Source: Eledone cirrhosa | Taxonomy: Eukaryota | NCBI GenBank assembly: GCA_964016885.1 | Contig: OZ024743.1 | Span: 172,856,001-172,920,000, forward strand | Direction of reading: 5' to 3' | DNA length: 64,000 nucleotides | Part shown: one piece after another, positions 73-47,150 of the stretch | Position numbering within the stretch: the stretch's first letter is position 1 | Layout of the letters: each line of letters starts with the position of its first letter | Translations under genes and position numbers: made by a program | Notes under the pieces: generated by a model | Told to the model about the DNA's origin: nothing | The model's input: only the letters and a program-made list of their open reading frames with translations | The model's database searches: none

Positions 73-529
73 TTTAGTGAGTTAGTCCCAGGGTTACTTA
101 CTCCAGTAAGTACCACCGAATCCCAACTACTAAATTTAATAGAAAGAAGATATAGGAGAATTTTCATACAATTTCTTTTTGTGAGAATTATCTCTCACTA
201 CATTAGAAGTAATAACTGAGGCATGAAGAGTTTCTCAAAACGAGTATCAAAATAACTTGCATTTATTGTAGACCGTGTATTACAAATTGTTATTACAAAT
301 GTGGTACGTTGTGGCATGACGAGGTATAATCTTGAATTATAAGATGTGGTTGGAAAAGGTTTAACATGCTTGCACTCGATGTGATCAGTTTAAGAGTTGA
401 TCGGCAAAAGAGAGAAAGAATGCTTTTTGCTCCCTCTTTTATAATCCTTGGAATGGAAGTCTTAAGGAATGTTCTAGAATTTCAACGAGAAGTAACTCTA
501 TCTACTTCGCTTGTCTAGAGAGCGCTACA
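73..529 (-). repeat. 3' LTR of Gypsy 1
   Basis: Direct repeat of 5089-5527. Minus-strand termini TGTAG...CTAAA. Adjacent purine tract GAGAGGGGAG. Confidence 0.95.
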
Positions 530-968
530 AGACTCCCCTCTCAGACGAGAAGTCGAATAACCAACCGAAGTTCATTGTAGCGAGAGCCCGTAAGAAATGA
601 GGAGCAAAGCAAAAGGTACAAGAAGGTGCATGAATAAAACATGAGCTCACAACTGAAGCAAATAGCAAAAAAGCACAAAACAAATAAATGCATTTTACAA
701 AGAAAAAATGTGAATGTAACAAACTGATAATTCAAAGTTAATATAAAGGAGCAGAGAAAAATTAATGCTTGATGGTAAGTTCAAAGTTTCTTCAAAATCA
801 AATAGTTCGTACATCACTAGTGTACAGACTTTTCTGACACTAGTTCTATCTGAAACTGAAAAAGAAGTTTGTTAATGCCACTAGGGGTTAAATGTATATA
901 GTTTTTGAGAGTTTACGTGGCCATTTTACTGTCCTGCCACCTCGTGTGACATAAGGTTGTATGGTATG

Positions 969-3962: not shown

Positions 3963-4716
3963 TTTCAGTTTTCCGAAGTCTCGAAAGAGCAGGGCTGAAT
4001 ACAGTGTTTTGCCTTTTCATGAAAACGAACGTGATACCAACACAAAGACGAGTTGTTGGCGCAATGATGACAAGAAGGAGACCGATTCCGTGAACGCCAC
4101 CTGGATGGCGTTCGCTCCCGACACAGGGTTTAGCTACTTGACGAGTTAACACGTCAATGGCTCTCAACATTGAGTCCTCACAAGGTGAAGTAGGCTGGGT
4201 TTTAAAAGCAGAAGAAGCGATGAATGCATCTGCCGAAGTAGGCACACGAGAAAATTCCATAATGTGGTCCGCCGAAGCTGCAATTTGTTCCAGAGAACTG
4301 GTGTCGACCATATTTGCCAATATGGTCTGCACATTTGTTGGCAAATGGGAGAATTGTTTCACGAAAGAGTTGTCTTCTGCTGTTGAGTCGCTTAGTTGCC
4401 GGATGCGCCGTAAAAACTGAGACGGGGTTCTGTCGCCCAGGTTTTCCTCCTTCAACAAGGAACAAAATCTGCTCTCAGATGAACGGCTGTTCCGTCTGAG
4501 AACTTCTGCCTTTAGGGTTTCGTCAGATGTGCCTTGTGGAGGATCTGTGATTATGTCTTTAACTGAGGTTGCCAGCGAAGCAGGAATTCCACTTATGAAC
4601 ACGTGTAATCTTTGTTGTGCCGCTTGAACGCCGTGGGCAGCAAAATACGAATCCAGTTGTGCAAACCACAACTTTGCATCATATGTCGGTAACGAAGAAT
4701 TGCTCATGGTGAACAC
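3925..4716 (-). CDS. Gypsy 1 gag, with a frameshift near the C-terminal Cys/His knuckle
   Basis: LWFAQLDSYF and LGDRTPSQFLRRIR are typical gag motifs of this Gypsy group. CWYH...C..PC lies in a shifted frame. Confidence 0.88.
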   Translation of the reverse strand: MFTMSNSSLPTYDAKLWFAQLDSYFAAHGVQAAQQRLHVFISGIPASLATSVKDIITDPPQGTSDETLKAEVLRRNSRSSESRFCSLLKEENLGDRTPSQFLRRIRQLSDSTAEDNSFVKQFSHLPTNVQTILANMVDTSSLEQIAASADHIMEFSRVPTSADAFIASSAFKTQPTSPCEDSMLRAIDVLTRQVAKPCVGSERHPGGVHGIGLLLVIIAPTTRLCVGITFVFMKRQNTVFSPALSRLRKTEIGESGHGRPLPH

Positions 4717-5065
4717 AGTAGACGCTGAGCGAAATTTTTTTTCTCAACTACCGCACACGTGGTAGTAGCATGAATAGCTGAAGTAAAAATATAGCACCGA
4801 GCACGTAAGATGGCGACTTCAAAAAACGAAAGCTTGGTTGAGCCGAAGACACGAGGGACATTTTTTTTTTTCTATTTTGTTCGCCCCACACGAACTGACT
4901 GAAATAAAACAAACTTCCTAGAGTCGAGAACAATTCTTTTCTGTGTCGTTGTTGGGTTCCATTTTAGTGGAGTTGTTTAGCAATGATTTGTGTAGCAATA
5001 AATTGTAATAGTGTATGAAAATATGTCACTACTTTTAGGCGATGTTGAATAAATGAATTTGTTTT

Positions 5066-5086
5066 GCTGCGTGTTCGGGGTCACCA
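5066..5086 (-). promoter_or_regulatory. Primer binding site (tRNA-Trp) of Gypsy 1
   Basis: TGGTGACCCCGA lies 2 nt from the LTR and matches the recalled tRNA-Trp PBS TGGTGACCCCGACGTGAT over 12 nt. Confidence 0.88.
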
Positions 5087-5088
5087 TT

Positions 5089-5527
5089 TTTAGTGAGTTA
5101 GTCCCAGGGTTACTTACTCCAGTAAGTACCACCGGATCCCAACTACTAAATTTAATAGAAAGAAGATATAGGAGAATTTTCATACAATTTCGTTTTGTGA
5201 GAATTATCTCTCACTACATTAGAAGTAATAACTGAAGCCGTGTATTAATTGTAGTCCGTGTAATAATTGTAGTCCGTGTATTACAAATGTGGTAAGCAAA
5301 TGTACCTCGTGGCATAACAAGGTATAATCCTGAATTATAAGATGTGGTTGGAAAAGGTTTAACATGCTTGCGCTCGATGTGATCAGTTTAAGAGTTGACC
5401 TACAAAAGAAAGAAAGAACGCTTTTTGCTCCCTCTTTTATAATCCCTGGAATGGAAGTCTTAAGGAATGTTCTAGAATTTCAACGGGAAGTAACTCTAGC
5501 TATTTCCCTTGTCTAGAGAGCGCTACA
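5089..5527 (-). repeat. 5' LTR of Gypsy 1
   Basis: Direct repeat of 73-529, adjacent to the PBS. Confidence 0.95.
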
Positions 5528-12440: not shown

Positions 12441-12511
12441 TTATTTCACAATTATAACAATTAGTCCACAGGATTGGATGTTGCTTTTGTTTCTCAGACT
12501 GTAGATTTCAT
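12441..12511 (-). CDS. CENPC: CENP-C-like coding exon 19 (last; cupin end and stop)
   Basis: Acceptor tttgacag, phase 1. Encodes (N)EIYSLRNKSNIQSCGLIVIIVK*. AATAAA overlaps and follows the stop. Confidence 0.88.
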
Positions 12512-13223: not shown

Positions 13224-13314
13224 TTGCAGGAATCATGAAACTGTCCCCTGATGACAGTACCATAGTCTTGCAACCAATTCTTACTTTGACTTCACCATAT
13301 TGCACAAGGAACAT
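13224..13314 (-). CDS. CENPC: CENP-C-like exon 18 (cupin)
   Basis: ttctag/gtatgt splice sites, 91 nt, phase 0 to 1. Encodes MFLVQYGEVKVRIGCKTMVLSSGDSFMIPA. Confidence 0.9.
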
Positions 13315-15668: not shown

Positions 15669-15841
15669 CTCTTCATTATGAGTTCGTTTTAGTGGTTTAT
15701 AAGCTCCTTTCTTCAGACAGATCAACCCCATAAATCCGTTCTCTGAATTCAAGCAACAGCAATAAATAATATCAAGTGCCTTTGATGGCTCTAATGCCTT
15801 GTTACTTATATACTTATAAGTCTGTTTGGGTGCAAAAACAT
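15669..15841 (-). CDS. CENPC: CENP-C-like exon 17 (cupin N-half)
   Basis: tggcag/gtgagt, 173 nt, phase 1 to 0. Encodes VFAPKQ...GFMGLICLKKGAYKPLKRTHNEE. Confidence 0.88.
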
Positions 15842-16689
15842 CTGCCAGAAACCAAAACAAAAGAAAACTTTAATAAATAAGGAGACAAATACTTGACTCA
15901 CATCACATCCTCCACTCCAATTCCACTGCCTTTCATCATCCTGTCTTCCCCAACATGAAGTCTCCCAAACATTACTTCCTTCCCTATCACATTAATTGTT
16001 GTTGTACCCATCACACTCATACTAATCACTTTCAACCTCTCTATTGTTGATGCCAAGATAAAATACACACATTACATTTTTTAAAGTTGTTGGTGAATAA
16101 ACACAGGGTAGCCTTTTCTTGTCAAGGACATGACAATTTCTCTAGTGCTGGGTACCATGATAGGATATACTCTGTAAAATGTGTTAAGTGGTGAGTGAAA
16201 GGAAGGACATCCATTTAGCATATATATATATATTATATTATTTATTTATGTTCATACTTGGAACAAAGGTACTACCTAATGTTTCAAGGACTTAATTTGA
16301 CCATACCTCCAAAAAATAAGAGGCATCAAAATATTGACCTTTCTTCTAGCACTAATGCGAGTTTATAAAATAGCGTTAAAAGTAAATTTTGCCAAGAACA
16401 CGTGTTTATGAAAGATAACATCATAAAACAAAGGGAAATAACTCCAAGCTTTAAATATGAATCGAGATGAACCACGTATTTGTATACTATAGCAGAAGTA
16501 TTGTATTATGTAGTGGAATGTAATATAGAAATGGTAAGATTTAATAATTGTTTCTACTTTTTGGCACAAGGCCAGCAATTATCCAGTGCATTACTGGTAA
16601 TATATTGAGTATAGTAGTGTAGAAAGTGTATTGTATTATGTAAGTGTGGAAAGAGAAAGAAAAGATATAATGGAAGTATATAAATCCAA

Positions 16690-17540
16690 TTAAGGTGGTT
16701 GAAAATCAGTCAAATTTGTTGAATATTTCCACCTAGCGAGCAATTGAGTTTTGGGATGGAGACATTCTCTAAAAAGTTCTGTCTTTGAGTTCAAGTAAAT
16801 ATTGTTCGGAGATGACAAACCTTGTAATATCCTAAATTTCTCACTCACATGGAGATCATATTTCTTGGTACCGTTGGTGTAAGGCCTGGATCTTTCAATT
16901 ACCTTCCAAGATATCTTATGTGGGACTCTTTTCTTCTTTAATTGCCAGACTTTCTTCACCAGAACTGTACTGGTTCTCATATCAGGATTCTTGAAGATGT
17001 GGAAATGCATGTAGAAACATTGCTTAAAACGATCTTTCACCATACCAACATATCTTTTGTGAACTTCAGAATTTTGTGTTGCTGTGTGTAATCTCTGCCT
17101 CATTCACAATGGATTTGATAGTACAATTCTATTAGAGAGGGCAGTTTTCTTACAAGAGCAGCTTCGATTATCGTTGGGTATATTTTTTCTAGTAATTTCA
17201 GATCTTATAGATGGTCTACAGTTTACTGTATGTATGTTGTGGTGGGAAATATCTATCTAATAAATCTAAAAATGTCTTACCTACATTAGTCTTTACTTTA
17301 AGGGAAAGGGGGGGGGGGGTACAAACCAAATTATTATTCTTTTTCTATAATTCTTGTTTAGTATGGTTGGGTTGGGAATGATCAGATGTGTACATACTTT
17401 TGTCCTTAAAATCACTATCTACAAGTGTTTGGTTGCAGTAAAGCACAGCCTTATTGAAAATCTCCCAGGTTGCTGATAGATTAGAGATCCTACAACTAAT
17501 GTTTGAAACTAAATTTTTAAAAACAGCAGGGGATGGCATG
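16690..17540 (-). mobile_element. Penelope-like element fragment (RT thumb and GIY-YIG endonuclease)
   Basis: YVGM..RFKQ, ISWKVIE, LNSKTELFRECLH and CRISNLS motifs. Confidence 0.85.
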
Positions 17541-17552
17541 AGGCTTTATTAA

Positions 17553-17759
17553 CCCTTTAGCATTTGCATTATTCTCTGTATACTATTGTATTTTCGCAGT
17601 AAAGACTTTATCTTACATAATATCAAATTTATGAGATTTTGATATTATTTATTTTGAGAACAATACTTTAACATTGGTATGAGTGGCCGGTTATGGCCGA
17701 TTTGAACAGAAGAGGTGAGCGAATTCTGGCCGGATACAGCCGATTTGAATGCTAAAGGG
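17553..17759. mobile_element. piggyBac-type MITE
   Basis: TTAA-CCCTTTAGCATT...AATGCTAAAGGG-TTAA. A second copy lies at 52968-53172. Confidence 0.88.
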
Positions 17760-17764
17760 TTAAT

Positions 17765-18045
17765 CATCATCATTTTATGTCTGCTTTTCCCTGCTTGCAA
17801 GGGTGGGACAGGTCCTATTCAGCACAGCATCTCTCCACCCATCACAGTCCTTCATCATCTCCTCCGTGAGCTTCAGTAATCTGAGGTCTGCTCTCACCAT
17901 TTTCACCCATGTTTTTCGTGGACTTCCTCTACTGCGTCTTCCTTCTACTGGGATTTCTTGGCACTTCTTTACCCTGCGGTCATCCTCCATGCGCATCACC
18001 TGTTCATATCATCTGTCTTCTCTCCTGCACACCACAACTTATCCC
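17765..18045 (-). mobile_element. RTE LINE 3' fragment
   Basis: MMRMEDD..VKKC, PRKTW and a GAT tail. Confidence 0.82.
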
Positions 18046-18833
18046 TAAAATAAAAACTAACAGTATAGAGAGGACTCTTAAGTCTGGTCAGACAACCACT
18101 CTAGTGCTGGTTAAACAAATAATACTAGTCAACACTGTAAAGTAGTTGGTGATAGTAGTTGGCATGTAACCAGAAAATTTACCAAAAACACAATAACATT
18201 ATAGATAAATGTGAGTGTGTATACAGTGCTAACACTAAACATTTTAGTGCTGTGCAGAGGAGTGGAGCAGCTAACCCAACCACGTGCAAGAACCCCCTCA
18301 ATCATCAAGCAATCATTTTCCATTTCAGGTACAGAAATCTGCTAGTGAATGACATAATTACCACTGTCAGGTAGCATGTCTCAGGGCTGTCACAATGAGG
18401 GGACTATGAAATGCAGATCTGGAGAAAATGTGTACTGTGTACAAGTGAGATGGAGGGAACCTCAACCAAACATAAGATTTTCTGGGTAAGAAATGATGAC
18501 AGGGTAGGTGGAGTAGACATTCAACTAGCTGAGACATGGAGAGAGAAGTAGTTGAGACATGGAGAGAGAAGTAATTGAAGTAGTTAGAGTAAGTTACAAC
18601 AGAATTATCAAGAATAATCATCCCACCCTTGCAAGCAGGGAAAAGCGGATGTAAAATGATGATGAATCATATGCAATAGAATGACAACAATTATCTCTAC
18701 CTATATACCTCAATCAGGTAAAGAATAAAAGGACCGATTATCTGAGGAACTCCTACAGGCAACCACTGCTACAGATGACAGAGACCTCATCATTATGATG
18801 TGCAGGGGTGTGTATGTGTAGTATAAAACTTAC

Positions 18834-18947
18834 TTTTCACTGTATGTTTCTCAGAGGATGATCTTAATGCATGTTTCTTTTTGTGTTGTAAAGGAGGTGA
18901 CATTTCTATCAGTGGGAGATCACCTTGTGATACATTTGAAGTTTCAT
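18834..18947 (-). CDS. CENPC: CENP-C-like exon 16 (repeat exon 6)
   Basis: cctcag/gtaagt, 114 nt, phase 1-1. Encodes ETSNVSQGDLPLIEMSPPLQHKKKHALRSSSEKHTVK. Confidence 0.82.
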
Positions 18948-20531
18948 CTGAGGAAAAGAATTTAATATTTAATACAGTTTACAGATATTTCCGAAAATAA
19001 TGAACAACAAAGGAAAAGAAAGAAAAAGGCAGAAAGAAGAGACAAAGGAAAAGAACTCAGACATGATGGACACCTACCTGCATATTAAATTCCTAAATTT
19101 GCTGATAGCATTATTGTCAGTGTCTTGTAAAGATCTCACAAAAGATTCTTCTACCGTTTATTTATGATGGACAACCACACCAAAAAGCATGAAACATTGT
19201 CAAATGGCTTCTCCATGCCAACAAATTCTTAGTAAAATCTCCTTTTTACTTGGGTAAGAATTTCCTCTGTAATTACTTCACTGACGAAGGCATACTGATG
19301 CCTACATCCAGCACAAGAGCTAAGTGCAACTCATTTAAGCTAGTTATCTTCCTTGATAAGGCTGATTTAAAAAAGAAAATTACATATTTTCTTGCAACTG
19401 GTGAAAAGCATCACTGTTTACAAGTTTCTAATGGGGCCAATCACCAACAGTGACAAAGGAGTGCTGGATAACTCGATTTAGAACATCAGAAGGCTTAGTT
19501 GAAGAAAACCAGTTTTTCTATTTTCTCACAAATATTTATTTCTTTTCCCAATACACATCAGCAAAAGATACATGGCGACACATACACATACATACATACA
19601 TATATATTTTTAAATACAAGGGAAACCATTGTATATTTTTCTAACATTCTTATGTTGCCTCCAGCTTAAGTTTTCAACCCAATGTATATGCTATATCAAG
19701 ATACTTTTGTTGTTTGATAGTATAAGTCCAAATTTCACTATCGTAAAGTAGGATTAGTTATATTGTAACTTGGAAGAGTCTCAATTTGGAGGAATTTGGT
19801 ATGTTAGAATGCCAGTTTCTGTCAAGCTTATTACATGCTGATCACACCTAGGCTTTTCTAGCTTTGAAATCTTTTCCATAATCCGTGATCCAAGAACCAA
19901 GGTACTTAAAATCGTTTATAATGAAGAATGTAAGTCGTTATAGTTTTTAGTAAGGTTAGATCAGAAGGCATTAAATAGACAAACTCCATTACAAGTATGT
20001 ACTTCATTTATTCTTGCTTCACACTGTGAAAGTCATTTTGCCTGTATTTCCATGTGTGAGATACGACAGGATATGGCGTGTCGAAGAATCGACATCTTGA
20101 CGATAGCGGGTTTATCTGGAGACTGATCTTCTGACTTAACTTCCGTTCTCTGGTCTAAGTAGTCCAGTTACTTGTATCGCTACACCGAAGGTTTTGATTG
20201 GCTCACACTTCAGCCAATTTACTTCCGTAACATTTTTCTTCCGCCGAAGGAAAATACATTTAATTACATATTACTGCTACATCACCCCCTGCTTAGGCTG
20301 AAGGCCGACAGAGAAAAAAAGTGTAGCAGTTGCAAGAAAGAAAAAAAAATATGACAGTAAATATATAATAAACAATGTCATTTCACAGGAATGTCTGCGT
20401 TTTGTTTCAGAGAAAAAGAGGAACATAAAAACTGAGCAGCAGAAATAGTCCAAAGTTCACATTAATTAATGCATTTAATATAAATACAAGAGAGGACAAG
20501 AACTCAAAAAGCTTGCTTGATATAGCATAGT

Positions 20532-23500
20532 TCATGTATACAGAGTCTTGCAAAGCTTTTTGGGCCAATGTACTCGGCGACCACTACGTGTGGTGGTGAC
20601 ATATGTAGGTGTAGGTGGAGAAGGTGTGTGCAATGTTGCATGTGTAGCGTGTGTTGGCTGATGCAGAGTATATGTAGGGGGAATATGGGGCTCTTGTGTG
20701 AGAGTGTCTGTAAAGGCCCGTTTCACCCTATCGATGGATACAGTCTCTTTTTTACCACCAATGACCAGAGTGAACAGTTTATCTGTGCGTGCAAGCACAC
20801 GATAAGGACTGGTGTAAGGTGACGTTCTGTAGAAAGACGTGGGTCCACGAAGCAATGTCTTTTGGGACCGAAGACTTTGTCTGTTGCCGAGGGTTCATAG
20901 GCGGAAGATTGTCAAAATAAGATCGCAGTCTGTTCACATACAGAGCTGGATCTGTTTCAGGTAAATCCATTGGGGTCAACATCTGACCCGGCAAAGATAT
21001 AGGTACTCTGTAAACCAGTTCAGCTGGGGAGTATCCTAGATCCTCCTTGATAGCTGCACAACAGCCAAGAAGGACAATTGGTACATACTCGCTCCATTGC
21101 TGTTGATCCGGATAAGCGCGCAGTGCGGCTTTCAATTGGCGGTGGAAGCGCTCTATCATTCCGTTCGAAGCTGGATGATAGCTAGTCGTTCGGATGCGCT
21201 TAATTCCCAGGATCCTTGAAAGTTCTCGGAAGAGATGGGACTCAAACTGTCCACCACGGTCCGTGGTGACAGTGGTTGGAACTCCGTAACTCGATATCCA
21301 ACCCGATACTAGGGCTCGCGCTACAGATTCCGCCGAAATGTTACTTAAAGGAATGGCTTCAGGCCAACGTGTGAAGCGATCAATACAGTTCAGGAGATAG
21401 GTAAATCCTTGGCTGACTGGCCATAGTCCAACGAGATCTATATGGACATGACTGAACCGAGTTTCTGGAGTGCTGAAAGTTCCGAGAGGTGCGCGGATGT
21501 GTTTGTGCACCTTTGACTTCTGGCAGGACAAGCAGGAACGTGTCCAGGCAGTGATGTGATGCCTCATATTCGGCCAGAAGAATCTAGCCGAAATGAGCTT
21601 CACTGTGGTAGATATTCCAGGGTGTGCTAGGCCGTGCAAGGTTTCGAAAACTGCTCGAACTAGAGGACGAGGTGAATCCGTCGAGGTGTCACAAATAATC
21701 TGTGTGTCCGAAGTGGGCAAAGTTTGTTATGAAAATTTGCCAGTTGCAAATTCAGGAGACGAAAGATCCAAGGTGTCCAGGGGTGGCTGTTCTGTGGCCA
21801 TCCGTTGAAGGTCAATATCCGAAGGTGATGACAGGGAATTGATTGGGAGGCGAGACAAGGCATCTGCCGCCGCATTCTGCTCACCGGAGATGTGTCGGAT
21901 ATCGCTGGTAAATTGTGAAACGAAGTCCAAATGACGAGTTTCGCGAGGTGAATATTTATCCGGCTTAGAACACAGTGCGAACGTAAGCGGACGATGATCG
22001 GTGTAGATCGCAAATTGACGACCCTCCAGTGCATGCCGAAAGTGTTTCACTGAGAGGTACATAGCCAGGAGTTCACGGCCGAACGTGCTATATCGTGTTT
22101 CTGCAGGTTTCAGTTGTCTCGAGAAGTACACGAGAGGTTGTAATTGTTGTTGGTGATGCTGTTGCAAAACTGCACCTACAGCTGTGCCCGATGCATCAAC
22201 GACCAGTGAAAACTGGGCACCAGACACAGGATGTGCAAGCAAGTGATCTCTCCGCAAGTTTCTGCTTCACTTCATTGAAGGCTTTTAGCTGACTCGTGTC
22301 CAGTGTGATGGATTCATCTTTCCTTTTCCTGTTACGTAACAGGTCAGACAGAGGAGACAGGAGATCCGCACAGTGTGGGATAAAACGTCTGTAGTAGTTC
22401 AGCAGACCAAGGAAATGTCGTAGCTGGCGAAGTGAAGTGGGTGGTTGAAGGTCTTGCAGAGCTTTCACTTTGTCAGGTAGTGGTGATATTCCCTCTGGGC
22501 TGATGACATGGCCCAAGAAGACAAGTGAAGATACACCGAAAACACATTTCGCCGGGTTAATTCGTACTTGATACTGCTGAAACAGCTAAAAACAGTAGAC
22601 GGAGGTGAGTGACATGTTCCTCGGGTGAGGCACTTGCCACGAGAATGTCATCAATGTAGTTATACACGAAGTCCAAATCGTGCACAACTTCATCCATGAA
22701 ACGTTGGAAAGTACTGGCTGCGTTTCGCAAACCGAAAGGAATAGCCAGAAATTCGAACGCTCCGGAAGGAGTTGTTACGGCAGTTTTAGGTATATCTGCC
22801 GGGTTCATTGGAATCTGGTGGTAAGCTTTGACGAAATCCAATTTGGAGAATGTCTTACATCCATGAAGCGAAGACGCGAAATCTTGTATGTGTGGGATCG
22901 GGTAGTGATCGGGTACCATCATCGCGTTTAACCGGCGAAAGTCCCCAGTGGGACGCCAATCACCGGAACACTTCGGAACCAAATGCAAAGTAGCGGCCCA
23001 CGGACTTGAGGATGGGCGTATGATCCCCAGCTGTAGCATGTGGTTAAATTCAGCCTTCGCTGCTTTCAATTTCTCCGCAGGGAGGCGGCGAGGGCGAGAA
23101 AATACAGGAGCGCCAGAAGTTTCGATATAATGTTTTGTGGAGTGAGTAGGCTTGCTCACCACAAAATTCAAATTTGTCAATTCTGGGAAGGAATTTAGAA
23201 GCGATTGGAAAGGGTCCTCTGAAGCGGCGATGAAGAATACCGGGCTGATAGATGAGACAGTAGATCTCAAACCCGGAACAGAGAGTTCCGTATTAGCATC
23301 CAACAACCGGCGTCTGTGCATATCCACTAAGAGGTTATAGTGGTGCAGGAAATCCGAGCCTAGAATAGGGTAAGGCAAATCAGCGACCGTGAAAATCCAC
23401 GTGAAGTCTCTTCGCAATTCCAGGTTCAAAGAACGAGAAATCTGACCATATGTGGAGATAGGAGAATGATTTACGGCTTGCAGAGAAATGGATGAAACTG

Positions 23501-23621
23501 GCGGCTTCTCTTTGAGAAGTTTTAGCGGCCATATGCTGCAAGCAGCGCCTGTATCCACTAGACATCGAGCTTGGGAAAACGTGTCAGTTATGAAGAACGC
23601 ACGATTATTTGGGAGTGTCAT
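20532..23621 (-). pseudogene. Gypsy 2 pol, several frameshifts
   Basis: ORFs 22557-23621 (PR/RT), 22196-22516, 21727-22257 (RNH), 20779-21720 (IN) and 20532-20855. Confidence 0.93.
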
Positions 23622-23638
23622 AGGAGACTGTGCCGTGC

Positions 23639-24397
23639 TCAGGTCTCCTGAAATCTGTTTCCCTGGAGGGAAAACGAACAGGGCTGTTTACAAGAGCATG
23701 CCGCTGCGCCAAAACGGCGGCGTGGCGAGGGCAAACGGCTCTGGAAGCGACGTCTGGGCGATTGAGCCCTGGAGGTACTCAATTTTCTCACCTCTTTGGT
23801 GAGTTGCTCTATGGCTTGAAGTATTGCCACAGACGCAAGTGAGTGATCTGTGTGGACGGCAGCTGCTGGAGAGAACGAAGAGACCGCAGCCGGTGACTGA
23901 GGTGCAACATAGGAGGCAGGGTTTCCAGTGAAACTTATAATTTTGTCGGCCGAAGCCGCTAGCTGGTCGACTGTGGTAGTCTCCATCATAGGTGCTAAAA
24001 TCGCCTGAACACCGGGCGGCAGCCTTGAAAAGAAAAGCTGTTTAAAGAGGGCGCTGTCAGCTGGGGTGTCTTCCGCCAGCTCTTTCATGCGACGCAGAAG
24101 CTGTGTGGGCGTCCGATCACCCAAATGTTCATCATTGACGAGTGTCTGGAATTTATTCTTCGCGGACAATGTGGTCCGCCGCAAAACCTCGCGTTTTACG
24201 CTCTCATAGGAGGCTCCAGGGGCAGGATCAGTTATTAAATCTTTAACAACCTTCGTCAATGCCGCCGGGAAAGCACTCAAAAGCATGTGTAATTGTCTGA
24301 CTTCAGACGTAATGTTGTTCGCGGTAAAGTAAGACTCTATTTGTGCGAACCAAACATTGACATCGCCGGCAAACGCTGGCAATGAGGTGCTACCCAT
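23639..24397 (-). CDS. Gypsy 2 gag
   Basis: [10 protein letters not shown] and [21 protein letters not shown] slippery-type heptamer lies near the 3' end. Confidence 0.9.
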
Positions 24398-26617
24398 CGT
24401 GAATTATGGTATTCCGTAATAGGAAAATGCAGGCCAAGAGGAATATGTTAAGAAATGTCAGAGAGGAAAATGTTAAGAATTAAAAAAAAATTCTTATATT
24501 TTTCAAAAAGGCGTTGCCTTCAAATCAAATTGGCTGGCAAACAAACGCAGAAGACGTATAATGGCCATAACGCTCCGGAATACAGGCACAAAAAAAAATT
24601 ATAATGCACGATGGAATAATTTACCGATAATTTTTTTTTTTTTTGTTTTTTTTTGTTAATAATGTCGATACAAAATGTGTTTGTGCATGCAGGCAAATGA
24701 TAAATATAATGATAACGAAATAATTGTTCTAAACAACAAAACGTTCAGTTTTTTTTTTTTCTTTGTTACAGCATTCTTTCTTTCTTTCATATTTGTTGTA
24801 CCAAAATGCTTGTTTGAATCACATCGGCCTCACCATTTATAATGAAGAGTGTAAGTCGTTATAGTTGTTAGTAAGGTTAGATCAGAAGGCATTAAATAGA
24901 CAAACTCCATTACAAGTGTGTACTTCATTTATTCTTGCTTCACACTGTGAAAGTCATTTTGCCTGTATTTCCATGTGTGAGATACGACAGGATATGGCGT
25001 ATCGAAGAATTGATGTCTTGATGATAGCGGGTTTATCTGGAGACTGATCTTCTGACTTAACTTCCGTCCTCTGGTCTAAGTAGTCCAGTTACTTGTATCG
25101 CTACGCCGAAGGTTTTGATTGGCTCACACTCCAGCCAATTTACTTCCGTAACATTTTTCTTCCGCCGAAGGAAAATACATCTAATTACAAAGGATATATA
25201 TTACTGCTACACGTTAACTCTCTTAATTCCACTTCCATCTTGTGCTTTAAGAGTAGTTTGAGCAAATGAGAGATGTATTGTCTTGCTTTCATTGAGATGG
25301 AGACCAACAAGAAGAGTTGCTTCTTGGAAAGCCATGAAATGTTGGACATTCTCCAGGAAATCTGCTAGAAAAGCAATGCCATCTGTAAGATGTTGAGAGG
25401 AATGTTTTGAGCTCAAGAGAGATTTTACAGGGATGTCCCTCTCAATGGCGTCTAGAGAGATTCTAAGAGAGCAGTCTAGTGCTATGATGAAAAGGAATGG
25501 TGCAGGTGTGTTATTTTGAAATACACATGCAAAGATGTCAAAGAATTCAGTTAGGCCACCAGGAGTATTTATATTTGCATTGGTGTTTTGATAGTGTCTC
25601 AATTGCTTCCAAATTTGGAAGAGGATATCTCTATTTATGCTGTTGATAAATTTACAAAATAAGAGCCATTTCCTTGATGTAATTCTTTATTTTTTCAACT
25701 ATCCTTCTTAGGGCTAGAAATTGAACAAGAGTAGATCTTTCATGACTGAAATCATTTTCGTTGATTTCGGATGAAACAAGTCAGTTTAGAATTACTTTCA
25801 TGGAACAAATTAGTTTAGAATACTTTGTTGTAAATTTGGCATCAATGTGATTCCCAGCCATTTGTTTGGAAAAGAGACGTCACCCTTCTTAAGAATGGGA
25901 ATTATGCCAGCTTTAAACAAAATTGGGGTGGGGGTGGGGGGTGAGAAAGTGCACCAAATATCTCATTACATATTGACAGAAGAACTAAGGCCAGTTTAGG
26001 GTCTTTCCAAATCATATTGGGAATATTGTCAAGGTTTGGAGGTTACTTGTTCTCAAGGGGATTACAAAATTGATTTCACTCAAAGAAAAGTCTGTTATTG
26101 ACATGTCTAATGGAGGTGACATCTCTATCGGTAGGAGATTACCTTCGACAGGAGATAGTACACCCAAGAGACCCTTAATGTGGTTGACCTAGTTTCTCTG
26201 TGTGCTTGCTGAGAACCCCCTTTGATAATAGGGGAAAGCTTTTCTTTCCTACCAGTTATTTTATTTACTAAGGTCGACTGCAGGTTGTACTGGACTTACA
26301 GCCTTGACCAAGTAGTAGTCCCAGATGCAATATGACTGACCTGACTTCAGCCACTTTCACCTTAATTTAATGAGTTGAGCATTTAATTAATTGAACAACC
26401 GAATGCTCATCATCAAATCAGAGATTCTATCATGTGTTTTGGTTATCAAACATGAAAGTAAAAGCACTCGTATTTAGAGTTTATTCATTAATTCAAGAAA
26501 GCGACTAAATACTTTTGCTACTCCAAGTTTCCTGTTAAAAGAAACTCAAAGGAGTGATAAAATGAAGCTTCCTCAGCTTTAAATAAATAAATATGAATAT
26601 TTAAAACATACTCTTAC

Positions 26618-26707
26618 TTTCTAATGCATGTTTCTTACTGGGTGATGGCTGAGGTGTTTTGTGTTGTAAAGGTGAAGATTTGTCTTGTAGTACATCTACA
26701 GGTTCAC
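26618..26707 (-). CDS. CENPC: CENP-C-like exon 15 (repeat exon 5)
   Basis: ccttcag/gtaaga, 90 nt, phase 1-1. Encodes EPVDVLQDKSSPLQHKTPQPSPSKKHALE. Confidence 0.82.
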
Positions 26708-27160
26708 CTGAAGGAAAGAATATCATTTAACACAGTTACAGAGATTTCTGAATATAATGAAAAACAATAATAGTAACAACAAAACAAAAAAGGAAAGAAA
26801 AAAGAAAGAAACAAAAATTGTTCACATTCCATTGTGGTTAACACCAGACTGTACAGATATATAAAAATACAAGAGAGTAGAGAGATTACAATATCTCCAA
26901 CCCATGCTAGCATGGAAGATGGACGTTAAACGATGATGATGATGATCCACCACTGCATATCAGAATGCGCTGTGTGAAGCTATATTTTGAAAAATAGATG
27001 CATGGATTGATCTTATTTCTTTGACTCACTACCTATGTGTCATATAAGCCTGCTCAATCATGACGGCCCCATTGCTGGACAATAACAGCAATTAGTCTCT
27101 CCATAGTCTAATGATTAAACTTACAATACAAGGAAACATAGTTGTTCAAGTTTAACTTAC

Positions 27161-27259
27161 TTTTCCGTTTCAATGTGCCTTGTTTCTTATTTAGTGATGA
27201 CTGGGAATTTTTCGGTGGTAAAGGTGAAGATTTGTTTTGGGGTATATGTGCAGGCTCAT
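27161..27259 (-). CDS. CENPC: CENP-C-like exon 14 (repeat exon 4)
   Basis: ccttcag/gtaagt, 99 nt, phase 1-1. Encodes EPAHIPQNKSSPLPPKNSQSSLNKKQGTLKRK. Confidence 0.8.
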
Positions 27260-27834
27260 CTGAAGGAAAGAATTTAATATCTTATAGCTACTTCTGAAAA
27301 CAACAGCAACGAGTAAAAAGACAGAAAAATAGAAGAGAGGTAGGAATAAAGCAAGCAAAGAAGAAACAAAAAGTGAAATAATAACGAAGTAAAAGCAAGA
27401 ATGTAAAAATCGGAAGGCGAGGGAAAGGTAAGCTTCATAACAGATTTATGTGAAAAACACCAAAAGCTGAATGTTTAGAACAAAACTACATATATGATCA
27501 AAATATCCAGCATTTTAACATTACAACAGAGATGATGACAAACTGTGGACCATACCAAAGTACTGTATACATGGGTGCCACAAGTCTGTTTGATGAAAAT
27601 ATATGTGGGGTCAAGAAAACCTGTGAAACAAAAGGTTGAGAAGACTCTTCATTTGTGTCAAAATTATGATAACCTCCCCTAGTGTTTGTGACATGATGAA
27701 ACACACCTATGTGTCATATAAGCCTGCTCAATCATGACGGCCCCATTGCTGGACAATAACAGCAATTAGTCTCTCCATAGTCTAATGATTAAACTTACAA
27801 TACAAGGAAACATAGTTGTTCAAGTTTAACTTAC

Positions 27835-27933
27835 TTTTCCGTTTCAATGTGCCTTGTTTCTTATTTAGTGATGACTGGGAATTTTTCGGTGGTAAAGGTG
27901 AAGATTTGTTTTGGGGTATATGTGCAGGCTCAT
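27835..27933 (-). CDS. CENPC: CENP-C-like exon 13 (repeat exon 3, identical to exon 14)
   Basis: Identical 99-nt copy with intact splice sites. Confidence 0.78.
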
Positions 27934-28439
27934 CTGAAGGAAAGAATTTAATATCTTATAGCTACTTCTGAAAACAACAGCAACGAGTAAAAAGACAGAA
28001 AAATAGAAGAGAGGTAGGAATAAAGCAAGCAAAGAAGAAACAAAAAGTGAAATAATAACGAAGTAAAAGCAAGAATGTAAAAATCGGAAGGCGAGGGAGA
28101 GGTAAGCTTCATAACAGATTTATGTGAAAAACACCAAAAGCTGAATGTTTAGAACAAAACTACATATATGATCAAAATATCCAGCATTTTAACATTACAA
28201 CTAAGATGATGACAAACTGTGGACCATACCAAAGTACTGTATACATGGGTGCCACAAGAAAACCTGTGAAACAAAGGGTTGAGAAGACTCTTCATTTGTG
28301 TCAAAATTATGACAACCTCCCCTAGTGTTTGTGACATGATGAAACACACCCAGTACACTCTGTAGCGTATTGGAATGCATATAAGCGAGAAGACATGAAG
28401 GTACTTGCAAAAATATGAAATAAAATGTGAAAATCTATG

Positions 28440-28740
28440 TGTGGAAGTTTGATTGACATGACTCTGGTTCCATCAAGGAAGTGGCTATGCTCAATATGTA
28501 GGAAAGGAGTAGGTGGGAACTGTATATGATGTACACAATGTAAAACATGATTATATAAGAGATGTAATGGGGTTGTGGGAAGACTAAAATAAAAGGTGAA
28601 CTTTCTATGTAGGAAATGCACAGGAGTAGTTAGTGTAATAAGCTTTCTCCAATCCCAGGAAAACTCCATAGAAATAGTTGACAGTTTCTGTTACCTAGGC
28701 GACCTCACTAGTAACAGAGGCTTGCTCTGAAAGTATGAAA
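28440..28740 (+). mobile_element. RTE LINE fragment
   Basis: Degenerate SRKWLCSICRKGVG and IVDSFCYLGD. Confidence 0.75.
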
Positions 28741-29193
28741 TGCCAGCTGTCTGCAAAATGTAATGTTACGTGGAAGAACAGATGTTTGATGATGATATAT
28801 ATATATCATCATCATTTAACATCCGTTTCCCCTGCTAGCAAGTCATTACTCAAGCAGGGTTCCTGACCTCTCAGATTGGCTAGGGGCCTGCATCTTGCTT
28901 ACATATGGTCCCATGCTCTCAACATTATAGAGGTTGTTGTATCTTCAACACAGCTGAAGTGTCTCCCTTTGGCAGTTTGCTACAACTGGATGCTCTTCCT
29001 ACAAGCAACCACTTTACTAGGAAGGTTGTTATATCTTTGACACAACTGCAGGGTTTTCCCAGGCATTTGATTGGCAAGCTTTTTATTGCCAACCACTTTA
29101 CAGCGTGTACTGAGGGTGTTCATTGTATAAATAACCAAACACTAGAGAGGTTGGTGGTATGAAACCTAAGTTTTACATATTTATATAGCTTAC

Positions 29194-29289
29194 TTTTATT
29201 TTTCAATGTACATTTGGCAGTTGGTGATTGTTGAGACTTTTTGTGTGGTAGACGTGAGCTTTTTTCTTGGGAATCATCTGAGGGCCCAA
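29194..29289 (-). CDS. CENPC: CENP-C-like exon 12 (repeat exon 2)
   Basis: cttgcag/gtaagc, 96 nt, phase 1-1. Encodes GPSDDSQEKSSRLPHKKSQQSPTAKCTLKNK. Confidence 0.8.
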
Positions 29290-29519
29290 CTGCAAGAAAT
29301 AATTTCATATTTTATATAGTTTATAGAGATTTCTGCAAAGCAAAATGAACAACAACAACCAAAGATAAAGGAAAAAAGAAAGGAAGAAAAGGAAAAGAAA
29401 AGACAAGAAAAAGAAAAATAGAGCTAAAAGAATTCTGTTTTAAATATGAAGAATTTTCTTTTTTAAATATGCCAGCATGGAAAGTGGACATGTGACGATG
29501 TTGATAATGTGATAACAAA

Positions 29520-30003
29520 GGGATTTACTGCCCAAGTAATATGATACCTGCATGAGAAGTGCGGTGTTGTAAGGCAGTGAGTGAGATATGGGCAGTAAAT
29601 GCATAGGATATGCTGAAGCTGGAGAGAAATGAAGTGAGCATGCACACTAACATTACATATTCATTGGATGTATATGTTGGTGTGCATAAACAATAGGGCA
29701 TGGATGAACAGAGAATAACTGGACATAAGAGGTATCAGATGTAAAGTGCAAAAGAAAAGACTACACTGGTATGGACATGTGATGCTTAGGGATGATGAAT
29801 GCTTGGTGAAGTGCCAGGATATGCCAGTAGATGGCAGCTGTAGTAGGAGACTGAGGAAAACCTGAGCAGAGATGATTAGAGCCAATCTTAAAATAATGAA
29901 CTTGACTAAGGTGATAAAGGAATGTAATTATTGGAGGGAAGCTATGCTGGAAAGGACACATTCAGCCCATGGAAACATACATAAAATGAGGATTATGATG
30001 ATG
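29520..30003 (+). mobile_element. RTE LINE 3' fragment
   Basis: RLHWYGHVM motif and a GAT tail. Confidence 0.75.
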
Positions 30004-30344
30004 AAAATTAAAAGATAAAATATAAAAATAAAGTAAGCCTCTTAACTTTCTTTCCTGAATACCTCCTTGAACATCATTAAGATGTTTTGACACTAGTTCC
30101 CCAAGCAGAATAGTGAAAATCAAAAGTTATTTAACATGCCCATATAAAAATTGCTGTAAGTTTATCAATAATACAGATAAAAGCATGACATTTTCAGCGA
30201 AGTTTCAAAGCTAATTTTTTAAAAAGTTCATTATATTTACATTTTGTTAAAATAAATAAACAATTTTGTATCGAAGAATACGAGCAAAAACATGAAAAAA
30301 CATTATTTTCTTTTAATTCTCAACATATACATATATATACCTGG

Positions 30345-31110
30345 AAGTTTGTTTATAACAGTTGCTGGAAATGGTCAAGATGATATGGCTTGATACAGCT
30401 GATGCAGAGGTTCACTTTACACTATTCACATCCTGTTTTTGGTTCCCTTCTAATGTTCTGTTTGGAACTTTGTTGGACACTTGTTAAGTCATTCAGACTG
30501 GCCTTGGTTGTCAGCAGTGCTATGGTCTTCTTATCATGCTAAGCTGTTGCTATTAGATTCCCCTTATGCATTTGAATCAAGTCACCTTGTTTTTACAATT
30601 CGGCTGAAGTGATAGCTTTTGGCAAGCCTCTTCTATGTTTATGTACTGTGTTGCAAGCATAAGTCCCATTCTGTCAATGTTCCCCAAACACACAAAAAGA
30701 AATTATCACAATACAGGTGGTGGTTTTGTCCCAATATATCTCTTGCGAGGTCCTTAACTCTTTCTCCAAGTCCTTGCTCAGGCTAATTTGAAACTTTCCC
30801 AATATAAACTTGGCAGTTTATAACTGCATCCACACTTTTATCCCATGTATTGTAGGCTTCAACAGAATGTACTGTTTAAAGACCAGATGTCCGATGAAAG
30901 CAATTGTAGCATTGTCAATGGATGTTTCACAGTGTAGGTTATACTATGACTTCAGATTTTAGCGTGTGTGTTCAATAAAAGACTGTATATGGGTAAGTAC
31001 TTGAAGCATAACTTCCTACTTCAACCTATCACTGAGCATCAGAATTGAACATACTTCAAATGGGATTTAACTGCTGTAGTGAAACATAAATGTCTACAAG
31101 CAGGATTAAT
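30345..31110 (-). mobile_element. Degenerate piggyBac (PGBD-like) transposase fragment
   Basis: Manual translation gives SIDNATIAFIGHLVFKQYILLKPTIHGIKVW, HHLYCDNFF and ACNTVHKHRRGLPK. Confidence 0.85.
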
Positions 31111-31229
31111 TTCTGAATGATGGGACCAGGAAAAAAAGAGTTAACACATTTCTTTCTTTTTTATATACATTTATATTGGATGACACCATATATTATACAG
31201 TCCAGTAAGTTGAAGCATTTTGAAATTAC

Positions 31230-32330
31230 AATTAGAGAAAAAGTGGAAAAGAAGCTTGCACATGTTCTGTATCATGAGAATCAGAGGCGTGAACAGTTCC
31301 AGAGTACGAGACAATGTGCCAGAAAAATCCATGTTATAGTTGGAGAAAAGTGTGTCCAAAATTGCAGTGGAGCACTTGCTTTGATTGATGCCAAAGAGAA
31401 AGAGACATGGAAGTCCTATTACAAGAGACTGATGAATGAAGGATATAAATAGGAGAGTAAAAACCTACCCCATATAAATCCAACAATGGGACCAACCATA
31501 AAAGTTGACAGTAGTGATAGACAAAGCAATTACAGATATGAAGGTAGGGAAGGCAACTAAACTATCAGGCAGGCTAAGATGCTGAAAATATTCAGCATGG
31601 TGTGTTACAAGATAGAATCAAATGGTACAAGATGGTGTCATATTTGATGACTGTCATAGTAGTATCATTATAAGCTATTAAAGAGCAATGGAAACACACT
31701 ACAGAAACATTAAGTTGACGGACCATGTCATAAAAGTTAGTGAAAGGTTTATAGCATAACTAATTAGAGACAGAATCAAGCTAGATGAGATGGAGTTTGG
31801 TTTTATGCTAGGTAGGAGTACTACCAATGTCCTCTTTCTTGTGAGACAACTGTTGGAGAGGTACATAGCTAAGAGTAAACCTTTACTTGGCATTTGTAGA
31901 TCTGGAGAAAGCCTTTAACAGGGTCCCACGCTCTGTAATCTGGTGCGCACTTAGGAAGCTAGGTGCAGATGAATGGCTCGTAAGGACTGTGCATGCAATG
32001 TATAAAAGTACAACCAGCAAGGTGAGAGTTGCCAATGAGTACAATAATGAATTGGATATGCAGGTGGGTTATCCACAAGGGTTCAGGGTTTATCATTGTC
32101 TTTAAGGTCATCACTGAGGAATTTAAGACTAGCACTTCATGGGAACTGCTATACGCTACTGAACTAGTCCTTATAACTGAATTTGTGAGAGTTAGAGGCA
32201 AAATCCCAGACATGAAAGAAAATCTACAATTGAAAGGCCTAAAAGTAAACTAAGCAAAAATAAACATCTTAATAAGTAGGAAATAGGACAGGAAGCTGCT
32301 GATAAAAAAATGAACATAAAATGATGATGA
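31230..32330 (+). mobile_element. RTE LINE fragment
   Basis: AFVDLEKAFNRVP and WELLYA motifs. Confidence 0.85.
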
Positions 32331-32339
32331 CAAACTTAC

Positions 32340-32420
32340 TTTTAAATGCACATTTACTAATCTGAGGCTTTTTGTGTTGTAAAGGTGAAGATTTGTTTTG
32401 AGGCCCATCTGAAGATACAC
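32340..32420 (-). CDS. CENPC: CENP-C-like exon 11 (repeat exon 1)
   Basis: ccttcag/gtaagt, 81 nt, phase 1-1. Encodes VSSDGPQNKSSPLQHKKPQISKCAFK. Confidence 0.82.
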
Positions 32421-33970: not shown

Positions 33971-34152
33971 CTTTATATTTTTCAGCCAACTTGCTAGCAC
34001 CTTCTGATTTCTTCACAGGTTTTTCTTCATCATCAATGAGACACAAGTTAGATTCTAATACATCAAAGTAATGCATCTCAATTATTTGTTTATGAACACC
34101 AAATGCCGAAATTACTTTTTGGGGTAATTTGGTATTTTTCTTTGAAGGAACA
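33971..34152 (-). CDS. CENPC: CENP-C-like exon 9
   Basis: cttcag/gtttgt, 182 nt, phase 2 to 1. Encodes VPSKKNTK...LIDDEEKPVKK...EKYK. Confidence 0.8.
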
Positions 34153-35047: not shown

Positions 35048-35097
35048 CTTTTTGATATTTGCTTTTTCTTCATGGGTGACATATGTTTCAACAAAAC
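35048..35097 (-). CDS. CENPC: CENP-C-like exon 8
   Basis: aaacag/gtaact, 50 nt, phase 0 to 2. Encodes VLLKHMSPMKKKQISK. Phases match both neighbours. Confidence 0.75.
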
Positions 35098-42424: not shown

Positions 42425-42465
42425 ATCTTTATTTTCATTGACATTCTCCAAATTATTCTCTTTCT
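42425..42465 (-). CDS. CENPC: CENP-C-like exon 7
   Basis: ttttcag/gtaagt, 41 nt, phase 1 to 0. Encodes KENNLENVNENKD. Confidence 0.8.
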
Positions 42466-43694: not shown

Positions 43695-44041
43695 CTTGAC
43701 ATTCTTTCAAACCACTGACTCTATTGTTGACCATATTTTCTGGTTCTATTTCTGGTAACTCACAGACATTCTGGGGGAAAGATTTCTCTGCTGGAACCAA
43801 CATTGGTCTCTCTAGTGAAGCAGGCTTTTTGGTGAATGATTCCTCATCTTCAGGAAAAGATTTCATCCCTCGTCTATTGAGTCTTCTCATTTTGTTGTTA
43901 GATTCAGAGCTAGAGCCTGCAGAAGACACTCCGTGAATCTTTGAGAGTATCCCTCCTTCATGGTCACTGTCTTCCGAGTCAAAGGTATCACCTGATGACT
44001 TCATTCCACGCTTACTGATAACACTTTTCACATATGAAATC
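43695..44041 (-). CDS. CENPC: CENP-C-like exon 6 (largest; disordered, Ser/Glu-rich)
   Basis: ttgtag/gtattg, 347 nt, phase 2 to 1. Lies within ORF 43543-44052. Confidence 0.85.
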
Positions 44042-44293
44042 CTACAATACAAATCGGTTTCATCATTAAGGAAGAGCAGCTATTTTAACAATCTAAAATT
44101 ACATATTTTCCTCATCAGCTTCCACCAACCAAATTTCACTTGTAAGACATTGGTGAACCCAAGACAATAGCAGAAGACACTTGTTTAAGGTGCCAGGCTG
44201 TAGGACTGAATCTGAAACCACTGAACTCCTTAACCACATGGCAAAACCAAGCCTAGAGATATATTAAGTAAAACAAAAAAGAAAAACACTTAC

Positions 44294-44347
44294 CCCTCAG
44301 AAATAATTGAACAAGAATCTGACATTGACTCAACAGGGAATGATAGC
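44294..44347 (-). CDS. CENPC: CENP-C-like exon 5
   Basis: ttgcag/gtaagt, 54 nt, phase 2-2. Encodes LSFPVESMSDSCSIISE. Confidence 0.8.
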
Positions 44348-44375
44348 CTGCAATGAAAAGAATTAATTAATAACT

Positions 44376-45270
44376 AGATATACACTCTCAGAACATAAAG
44401 AACCAGAACAAATATTGCAAAGCATTTTGTTCCATGCTCTAACGTTTCGGCTAAGCCACCACCTAATTTAATAATAATATTTACTTTAGCTACAAGACCA
44501 GTATTTTACTAGTACTTTATTTCATTGACCTCAGTGCATTACTGGTACTTTATTTTATCGACCCCGTAAGGATGAAAGGCAAAGTTAACTTCGGTGGAAT
44601 TTGAACTCAGAATGGTAAGGGCCGTAACTCTATGCGTCAAAGCATGGCGTCCGACCCTCTACCGATACTGCCAATCTACCGCCTTAATATAATAATTGTT
44701 TCTACTTTTGGCACAAGGCCAGCAATTACCCAGTGTATTACTGGTACTTTATTTTATCGACCCCGTAAGGATGAAAGGCAAAGTTAACCTCGGCGGGATT
44801 TGAACTCAGACCGTAAAGGGACGTAACTCTATGCTTCAAAGCATGGTGTCCGGCTCTCTACCGATACTGCCAATCCAATAATGGTTTCTGATTTAGGCAC
44901 AAGGCCAACAACTTTGGGGGAAAGGGAGAGTCGATTAAATTACCCTCAGTGCATTACAGGTACTTTATTTTATCAACGCTATAAGGATGAAAGGCAAAGT
45001 CAACCTCAGCAGGATTTGAATTCAGAACATAAAGGGCCGTAACTCTATGCCACAGAGCACGTTGTCTGATGCTTAATAATTGTTTCTACTTTTGGCACAA
45101 GGCCAGCAATTACCCAGTGTATTACTGGTACTTTATTTTATCGACCCCGTAAGGATGAAAGGCAAAGTTAACTTTGGTGGGATTTGAACTCAGAATGGTA
45201 AGGGCCATAGCTCTATGCGTCAAAGCATGGCGTCCGACCCTCTATCGATACTGCCAATCCCCCGCCTTTG
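44376..45270 (-). mobile_element. Head-to-tail array of about 5 tRNA-SINE copies
   Basis: Repeated ATCGACCCCGTAAGGATGAAAGGCAAAGTTAAC...GATTTGAACTCAG units at about 44560, 44760, 44975 and 45140, plus a partial head at about 44380-44465. Confidence 0.9.
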
Positions 45271-45402
45271 AATGCTTAATAATAATAATGATTTTTTTTT
45301 TATTGGACACAAGGGTACAGAATGTTGTAGATAATAGGACAAAAACAAATGCAAAGTGGAGTTTACATTGAGTACAGGGACAATAATAATATTTAAATAT
45401 AC

Positions 45403-45485
45403 CTTTTCCTGGAAGGAAAATTCGACAGGGAAAGAGGAGCCATCTTCGAGCCATCTTCTGCTGGGTGTTTTACAGCTATTAATTG
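45403..45485 (-). CDS. CENPC: CENP-C-like exon 4
   Basis: atttcag/gtatat, 83 nt, phase 0 to 2. Encodes QLIAVKHPAEDGSKMAPLSLSNFPSRK. Confidence 0.75.
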
Positions 45486-47103: not shown

Positions 47104-47150
47104 GATATTACTGGATTTGTCCTCAATTTCTATATCAGATTCATCAGTGT
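47104..47150 (-). CDS. CENPC: CENP-C-like exon 3
   Basis: tttacag/gtaaga, 47 nt, phase 1 to 0. Encodes TDESDIEIEDKSSNI. Confidence 0.8.

Follow-up and report, generated by a model that had tools for sequence, protein, structure and literature searches.

A tandem array of six duplicated exons in the CENP-C orthologue of Eledone cirrhosa, a putative basic chromatin-binding module

What might a centromere protein do with six copies of one small exon? The question is raised by a 64,000-nt stretch of the Eledone cirrhosa genome (GenBank assembly GCA_964016885.1, contig OZ024743.1, forward-strand positions 172,856,001–172,920,000), here called the window, whose internal numbering is used below. Between nt 18,834 and 32,420 the minus strand carries six homologous phase-1/1 exons that sit directly before the cupin domain in a gene model for the kinetochore protein CENP-C. 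A preliminary description, made from the DNA sequence, saw in them a multivalent module serving either cyclin-dependent kinase (CDK)/Plk1 docking or basic DNA binding. The second option fits better, and Plk1 docking is not favoured as the main role. On balance, the array is probably a basic, predicted disordered and phospho-modifiable module that binds DNA or chromatin, likely non-specifically and at the centromere, although several observations count against this and are given below.

The CENP-C model is open across 18 exons and 612 codons on the minus strand, with canonical splice sites. It shares 56% identity over 599 aligned residues with the O. vulgaris protein P0024 (65% in the cupin part), with colinear exons, and the long O. 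vulgaris isoform also maps colinearly onto the window. When the first cupin exon was used as a HMMER query against 1.84 billion representatives, the one match was an O. vulgaris "Mif2/CENP-C cupin domain protein"; the exon is single copy in the genome. P0024 passes the Pfam CENP-C_C model (PF11699) with 41.3 bits against a cut-off of 29, as does the cuttlefish orthologue with 34.8 bits, and cupin exon 2 of the window (nt 13,224–13,314) taken alone reaches E 0.001, which is below the cut-off. A profile matched the Cnp3 cupin (6o2d) at E 0.004. The top Atlas structure match for the C-terminus of the Octopus orthologue was a CENP-C cluster (Template Modeling (TM)-score 0.73), and the Atlas model of the whole Octopus protein has a mean predicted local distance difference test (pLDDT) value of 0.38. 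The Octopus and cuttlefish orthologues are 28% identical. GIPC, to which the cuttlefish CENP-C models are fused and after which they are named, is found on the contig of the window gene too, at a distance of about 0.5 Mb. These comparisons show the window gene to be a CENP-C orthologue by sequence. Like other members of the CENP-C/Mif2/Cnp3 family (PF11699; 6o2d) it has a conserved N-terminal block, a disordered middle part and a C-terminal cupin, and a single copy was found; unlike them, the window model lacks both the R....P..[YFW]W motif and any tryptophan in its 612 residues. By this classical defining feature of its sequence, it is a motif-less CENP-C orthologue and not a canonical member. 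A word-based search for homologues, with the 57-residue cupin exon as query, gave no match, and none of 5911 candidates proved at E 0.001 to be a short protein matching the repeat and cupin of P0020. Pfam CENP-C_C, CENP-N and CENP-I likewise had no match when run against the genome, but the CENP-C_C search missed this very gene and so says nothing about absence or paralogues. The only PDB match of P0020, a weak one to EGFR, was dismissed as chance.

The repeat exons, all on the minus strand, are W1 (nt 32,340–32,420, 81 nt), W2 (nt 29,194–29,289, 96 nt, or 84 nt from an inner acceptor at 29,277), W3 (nt 27,835–27,933) and W4 (nt 27,161–27,259), which are both 99 nt and identical, W5 (nt 26,618–26,707, 90 nt) and W6 (nt 18,834–18,947, 114 nt). 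As first described, they are phase-1/1 exons of 81–114 nt, each of them open and bounded by an AG acceptor and a gtaag-type donor, and the array does lie just before the cupin, W6 preceding the exon that encodes the pre-cupin segment and the first part of the cupin (nt 15,669–15,841). The five distinct copies are mutually 63–78% identical. Their upstream introns are homologous as well, the 60 nt before the acceptors being 60–84% identical with z = 4.1–10.5 against shuffles in 10/10 pairs; the control, 55 comparisons of the copies with 11 other exons of the gene, gave a mean z of 0.5, with one outlying exon at 5.4–6.1. Downstream introns show no clear homology (z −0.5 to 2.9). Because the copies share both exon and acceptor-side intron sequence, they are genomic duplications that carried the acceptor along, in agreement with the earlier proposal. 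The consensus given there was overstated: Q[ND]KSSPLQHK..Q fits 2/6 exons, the full pattern with K..L fits none, and Q[ND]KSSP fits four. S-S-P is indeed kept in four copies (W1, W3, W4 and W5, the last also with S-P-S-K), but the identity of W3 and W4, the products of one recent duplication, leaves three that are independent. W2 has S-S-R in its place and keeps a later S-P, and in W6 KSSP has become MSPP. Searches of the window and of the genome revealed no further copies, the counts being lower bounds.

The W3/W4 duplication (nt 27,031–28,350) has a period of 674 nt; of 677 aligned columns 641 are identical, the differences being a single 31-nt indel and five substitutions. Its junction is contained in a 57-nt unitig that extends 27 letters to one side and 30 to the other, slightly short of the 31-letter bar, and contig depth inside the repeat is about twice that of the junction and flanks (23.2 vs 13 and 11.9; 30.5 vs 17.8, 17.3 and 16.7), in contigs from three runs of one sample that may be the assembly's own. 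The core of W6 looks as if it had been patched, in frame, by LINE (long interspersed nuclear element)-like sequence: over nt 18,891–18,926, 31/36 nt match a decayed LINE 7 kb away, and 26–30/36 match three other genomic copies. The mechanism may have been a templated insertion, and the likely donor family is a decayed non-LTR (long terminal repeat) retroelement in the W5–W6 intron (nt 25,200–26,400, minus strand), which has 20 dispersed genome matches and reverse transcriptase-like remnants. Within it, the segment at 25.9–26.4 kb was considered as a seventh, frameshifted repeat exon and rejected as dispersed retroelement sequence. The identity of W3 and W4, the hybrid nature of W6, and the failure to find here the exon that separates array and cupin in Octopus would all be expected if some or all of the six were pseudo-exons in Eledone cirrhosa, or if the array were partly an assembly artefact. 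This is very improbable given that in six out of six the donors and acceptors match the consensus and phase and open frame are preserved, that homologous units occur in annotated proteins of two Octopus species, and that the junction unitig and roughly doubled interior depth, from that one sample, argue for a real W3/W4 duplication.

Copy number differs among relatives, with six units here, eight in O. vulgaris (28–32 residues each) and none in cuttlefish. In a tree of 13 units, 0/10 inner branches were supported and there was no supported one-to-one orthology between species; the species labels required 2 changes vs 4.2 in shuffles (10/500 as low). Independent expansion of the repeat in each lineage is suggested by these sequences. 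The proposed tuning of the array by splicing finds support in the relatives, where 10 inclusion patterns occur among 17 O. vulgaris isoform proteins (from a cluster with two further members) and four among eight of O. sinensis, all of them database annotations whose backing by RNA reads is assumed. Individual O. vulgaris isoforms hold 5–8 units; units 2, 5, 6 and 7 are missing from 5, 4, 8 and 6 of the 17, and units 1, 3, 4 and 8 are present in all. Units 5 and 6 are missing from 2/8 and 3/8 of the O. sinensis proteins. Octopus unit 1 has a 12-nt alternative acceptor, and W1, W2 and W5 each contain an in-frame AG at the corresponding offset. Eight O. sinensis RefSeq proteins (P0011, P0013, P0015, P0018, P0019, P0021, P0022 and P0026) carry a frame shift in unit 7 and have no cupin, and they bear the names unc-89 or dao-5; the frame shift is probably an assembly error that hides CENP-C. 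The cuttlefish orthologue has no repeats at the array position, where a 253-residue stretch has a net charge of +58. Cuttlefish proteins P0012 and P0028–P0030 contain zero, one or two W-x-C-x-x-C...C-x-x-C units at this position, which we take to be similar to RanBP2-type zinc fingers (no Pfam match was returned), and cuttlefish looks to have duplicated, and to skip, a different module here.

Within the units, S-S-P is more conserved than the flanking residues, with 0.80 vs 0.47 for the other 28 columns over 13 distinct units. No three-column stretch is better conserved and one, K-S-S, equals it; 2% of random triples score as high, a statistic that ignores the shared descent of the units. Four lysine columns and one threonine are conserved as much as SSP or more, the most invariant columns all being lysines (13/13, 10/10, 12/13 and 12/13). 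An S/T-P is kept in 14/14 units and S-S-P in 11/14, with loss in three. The S-S-P core, which by sequence corresponds to the Polo-box site S-[pS/pT]-P, is found in 4/6 window and 7/8 O. vulgaris units, and the full CDK consensus S/T-P-x-K/R at SSP in 0/6 window units vs 7/8 in Octopus, the minimal S-P remaining here. Polo-box domains prefer phosphothreonine and hydrophobic residues upstream.

These patterns could reflect an array that is mainly a multivalent Polo-box dock, in which every S-pS-P would be primed by CDK1 and the amount of Plk1 at the inner kinetochore would depend on how many exons are included. The 11/14 units with S-S-P would fit such a role, as would the serine at −1, a position required by the Polo-box and not by CDK, which is kept in 12/13. 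The O. vulgaris array contains seven S-S-P vs 1.7 in shuffles (maximum 7 in 5000), and in C. elegans CENP-C a CDK1-primed STP serves to recruit PLK-1 (PMC10156168). The nematode protein, however, has one such S-T-P, which lies towards its N-terminus, and in human CENP-C the single SSP is not needed, the SSP mutant still binding PLK1 (PMC12301651). In the octopod units, the conservation of SSP is inflated by shared descent and equalled by the lysine columns, copies that lose S-S-P keep S/T-P, the full CDK consensus is missing here although frequent in Octopus, and the residues upstream are charged, unlike the Polo-box preference. Docking of Plk1 as the main role is thus considered unlikely.

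For a basic chromatin-binding array, the evidence lies in the charge, in the near-invariant lysine columns and the S/T-P present in every unit, and in precedents from other CENP-C proteins given below. The window array has 36 K/R vs 14 D/E in 193 residues, a net charge of +22, and that of O. vulgaris has +43 in 257 residues; with +58 in the cuttlefish stretch, charge has therefore been kept while sequence has not. A number of results weigh against this reading. Neither SP[RK][RK] nor an AT hook (GRP core) is present in any unit, RK clusters (net charge +4 in a 7-residue window) number one in the six window units and two in the O. vulgaris array (motif definitions from PMC5710141), and the units are rich in lysine rather than arginine. 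The scarcity or absence of minor-groove motifs counts against classical minor-groove binding, and the net charge for general DNA binding, as far as the sequences go. Furthermore, comparing the window copies gives a ratio of nonsynonymous to synonymous differences (pN/pS) of 0.92 (pS 0.39, pN 0.36; 10 pairs, 22–26 codons), and the 63–78% identity of the repeat exons is not above that of their upstream introns; constraint on the exact repeat sequence is therefore weak here, this small sample showing no strong purifying selection. An Atlas feature search with the repeat gave no usable match, all structure matches having TM-scores of ≤0.24.

The same pN/pS value, the tolerance of W6 for a LINE-like patch, the lack of repeats in cuttlefish, and the variation of copy number and unit identity between species (with 0/10 inner branches supported) are what would be seen if the array were a largely neutral linker of variable length, its symmetric exons duplicated and skipped without selection and only disorder and rough charge mattering. 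Several features are not easily reconciled with such a linker, and it is judged improbable. All 14 units can be read through in frame, and each either retains its splice sites or belongs to annotated proteins. The K-S-S-P-x-x-H-K core has survived in lineages whose proteins are just 56% identical, and four of the O. vulgaris units (1, 3, 4 and 8) are included in 17/17 isoforms.

The preliminary description placed the array roughly where the CENP-C motif normally lies, and missed that the motif itself is absent. Its pattern, R....P..[YFW]W (PMC5710141), is found neither in the window model nor, by six-frame search, on the gene's strand of the window, and none of the isoform proteins from cephalopods, 29 in all (17 from O. 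vulgaris, 8 from O. sinensis and 4 from cuttlefish), contains it; 21 of these reach the motif position, the 8 O. sinensis proteins ending before it. The aromatic residues of the motif read the hydrophobic tail of CENP-A (PMC5371998). At the motif position, a short stretch, RSM[RK]N[EQ]S, is common to Octopus and cuttlefish and may be the basic half of the CENP-C motif. The Octopus exon between array and cupin, which carries RSMRNES, was found neither at nt 15,842–18,833 of the window nor by genome search; splicing from W6 to the cupin would preserve the frame. A candidate for this exon at nt 17,154–17,225 scored no better than chance; it lies in what we take to be a Penelope-like remnant. The best reading of these sequences is that the window CENP-C has lost canonical recognition of the CENP-A tail. 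In chicken DT40 cells the motif is dispensable, and binding to CCAN (constitutive centromere-associated network) together with cupin oligomerisation suffices (bioRxiv 2022.08.17.504347).

The other partner of this interface was sought outside the window. Among 71 histone-family genome matches, 16 atypical ones and one H3 were examined, and of the 16, 11 were H3-like, 4 were not H3 and one was a CenH3 candidate. The latter is a single-copy gene (G000:C8; L027:2921–3091 and L011:999–1232, both minus strand) of two exons and 134 codons, with a divergent, unrelated N-terminal tail. It carries the substitutions Q68M, F84W and T107S and keeps T118, so that H3 Q68 and F84 are both lost; the published list gives Q69, F85 and T118 (PMC4359364). 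The C-terminal third scores higher with the CENP-A chimeras 7by0/7bxt than with H3. No loop-1 extension is present in the candidate, which aligns to H3 without gaps and is closest to H3 in its alpha1-loop1 part. After the R131 equivalent it has one residue vs 7 in the CENP-A chains compared and 4 in H3, and, given the predicted stop, the hydrophobic C-terminal tail read by CENP-C is absent. Judged from its sequence, the candidate is likely CENP-A; another CenH3, or a diverged CENP-C paralogue, is possible in this genome. Tens of kilobases upstream of the candidate are filled with a short-period satellite (L028–L030; repeated tblastn pattern).

How a basic array might operate can be outlined as follows. 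The six exons are tandem copies of one symmetric exon, whose phase would leave the frame intact whenever a copy is added, removed or skipped; copy number would therefore drift between lineages, and exon skipping would likely lengthen or shorten the array. A cupin dimer would offer nucleosomal or linker DNA two arrays, each with a net charge of +22 here and +43 in O. vulgaris, and phosphorylation of the S/T-P sites by CDK would likely dampen binding. With the aromatic motif gone and the CenH3 candidate tail-less, targeting would rest on the avidity of the array, CCAN binding and cupin oligomerisation. In vertebrates, CDK1 regulates the binding of CENP-C to CENP-A (PMC6891089). RK clusters next to the CENP-C motif bind AT-rich DNA (PMC5710141). 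Taken to its full extent, the idea would be that octopods have lost the CENP-A/CENP-C interface on both sides (the aromatic motif on one; the hydrophobic tail and long loop 1 on the other) and have serially amplified an alternatively spliced, CDK-switchable basic array that now anchors CENP-C to centromeric chromatin. This wider proposal is tentative and, as a whole, rather doubtful.

The remaining exons of the gene are likewise on the minus strand. Exon 1 (nt 59,620–59,651) is the probable first coding exon, its phase fitting exon 2, with a canonical donor and a predicted start codon. Exon 2 (nt 57,999–58,087; 72% identical to O. vulgaris P0020) encodes the N-terminal block (DEDGFENFEDYF), which is kept in the window, Octopus and cuttlefish; it gave no match to Pfam Mif2_N or CENP_C_N, and presumably resembles the Mif2/CENP-C N-terminal motif (the Mis12-binding block). 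Exon 3 (nt 47,104–47,150) is acidic. Exons 4 (nt 45,403–45,485, 60% to P0020) and 5 (nt 44,294–44,347, 83%) together make up an RKRLSF stretch, which we assume to be cyclin-docking-like, and exon 6 (nt 43,695–44,041, 50%, E 2e-22) encodes two RGMKS repeats; the RKRLSF stretch and both RGMKS[FLS] repeats (nt 43,695–45,485) are kept in the window, Octopus and cuttlefish. Exons 7 (nt 42,425–42,465) and 8 (nt 35,048–35,097) are predicted from splice sites and phase. Exon 9 (nt 33,971–34,152, 45% to P0020, E 4e-11) contains a conserved AFGVH..YFD..LI[DE]E block, a candidate CCAN-binding region. Beyond the array, the pre-cupin/first cupin exon is 62% identical to P0002 (E 5e-15), and the last coding exon, with the stop codon (nt 12,441–12,511), is 57% identical to P0020. 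The introns are filled with many remnants of RTE-type LINEs. Two related LTR retrotransposons of the Ty3/gypsy type, with LTR pairs 93–96% identical and broken frames, lie in the window at nt 304–5527 and nt 19,915–25,211, the latter on the minus strand of the W5–W6 intron with LTRs 94% identical.

Part of this picture is already known from other organisms, namely recurrent duplication of CENP-C exons in grasses, a precedent that the preliminary description missed, and decay of the motif with retention of the cupin in dragonflies. Exons 9–12 of grass CENP-C have been repeatedly duplicated (Talbert et al. 2004, PMC549713), and this region carries the DNA and RNA binding of maize CENPC (Du et al. 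2010, PMC2816676). As in the octopods, tandem duplication and loss of exons 9–10/11–12 recurs in a poorly conserved region, with basic units of about 30 residues and lineage-specific copy number. The grass unit, in contrast, is a pair of one acidic and one basic exon, with a few copies at most, in a protein that retains the CENP-C motif, whereas the octopods have a single basic S/T-P exon in 6–8 copies, skipped in annotated isoforms of the relatives, and no motif. The likeness is one of pattern, and homology of sequence is not claimed. Dragonfly CENP-C also keeps the cupin without a recognisable motif, but there CenH3 has been lost and the chromosomes are holocentric (Drinnenberg et al. 2014, PMC4359364), while here a CenH3-like gene is present that has neither the C-terminal tail nor the loop-1 extension. 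Like the octopod protein, HCP-4 of C. elegans (Taylor et al. 2023, PMC10156168) carries S-[S/T]-P within a disordered part of the chain, but it has one N-terminal S-T-P with demonstrated binding, compared with repeated C-terminal S-S-P known from sequence. On cephalopod CENP-C nothing was found in print, in a literature that mostly excludes subscription papers and in which supplements (the 127-species survey of PMC5710141, and PMC5579357) may include molluscs. By itself, the array of exons adds another example to a pattern already described.

[quoted passage not shown] If the proposed loss is true, an animal lineage that keeps both genes while both halves of the interface are gone would be a natural test of which parts of CENP-C are needed, and such a loss would agree with the chicken cell work in which the motif is dispensable (bioRxiv 2022.08.17.504347). 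The array itself repeats, in an animal, the type of exon turnover described in grasses, which bears on the idea that the DNA-contacting region of CENP-C is its fast-evolving part in centromere drive.

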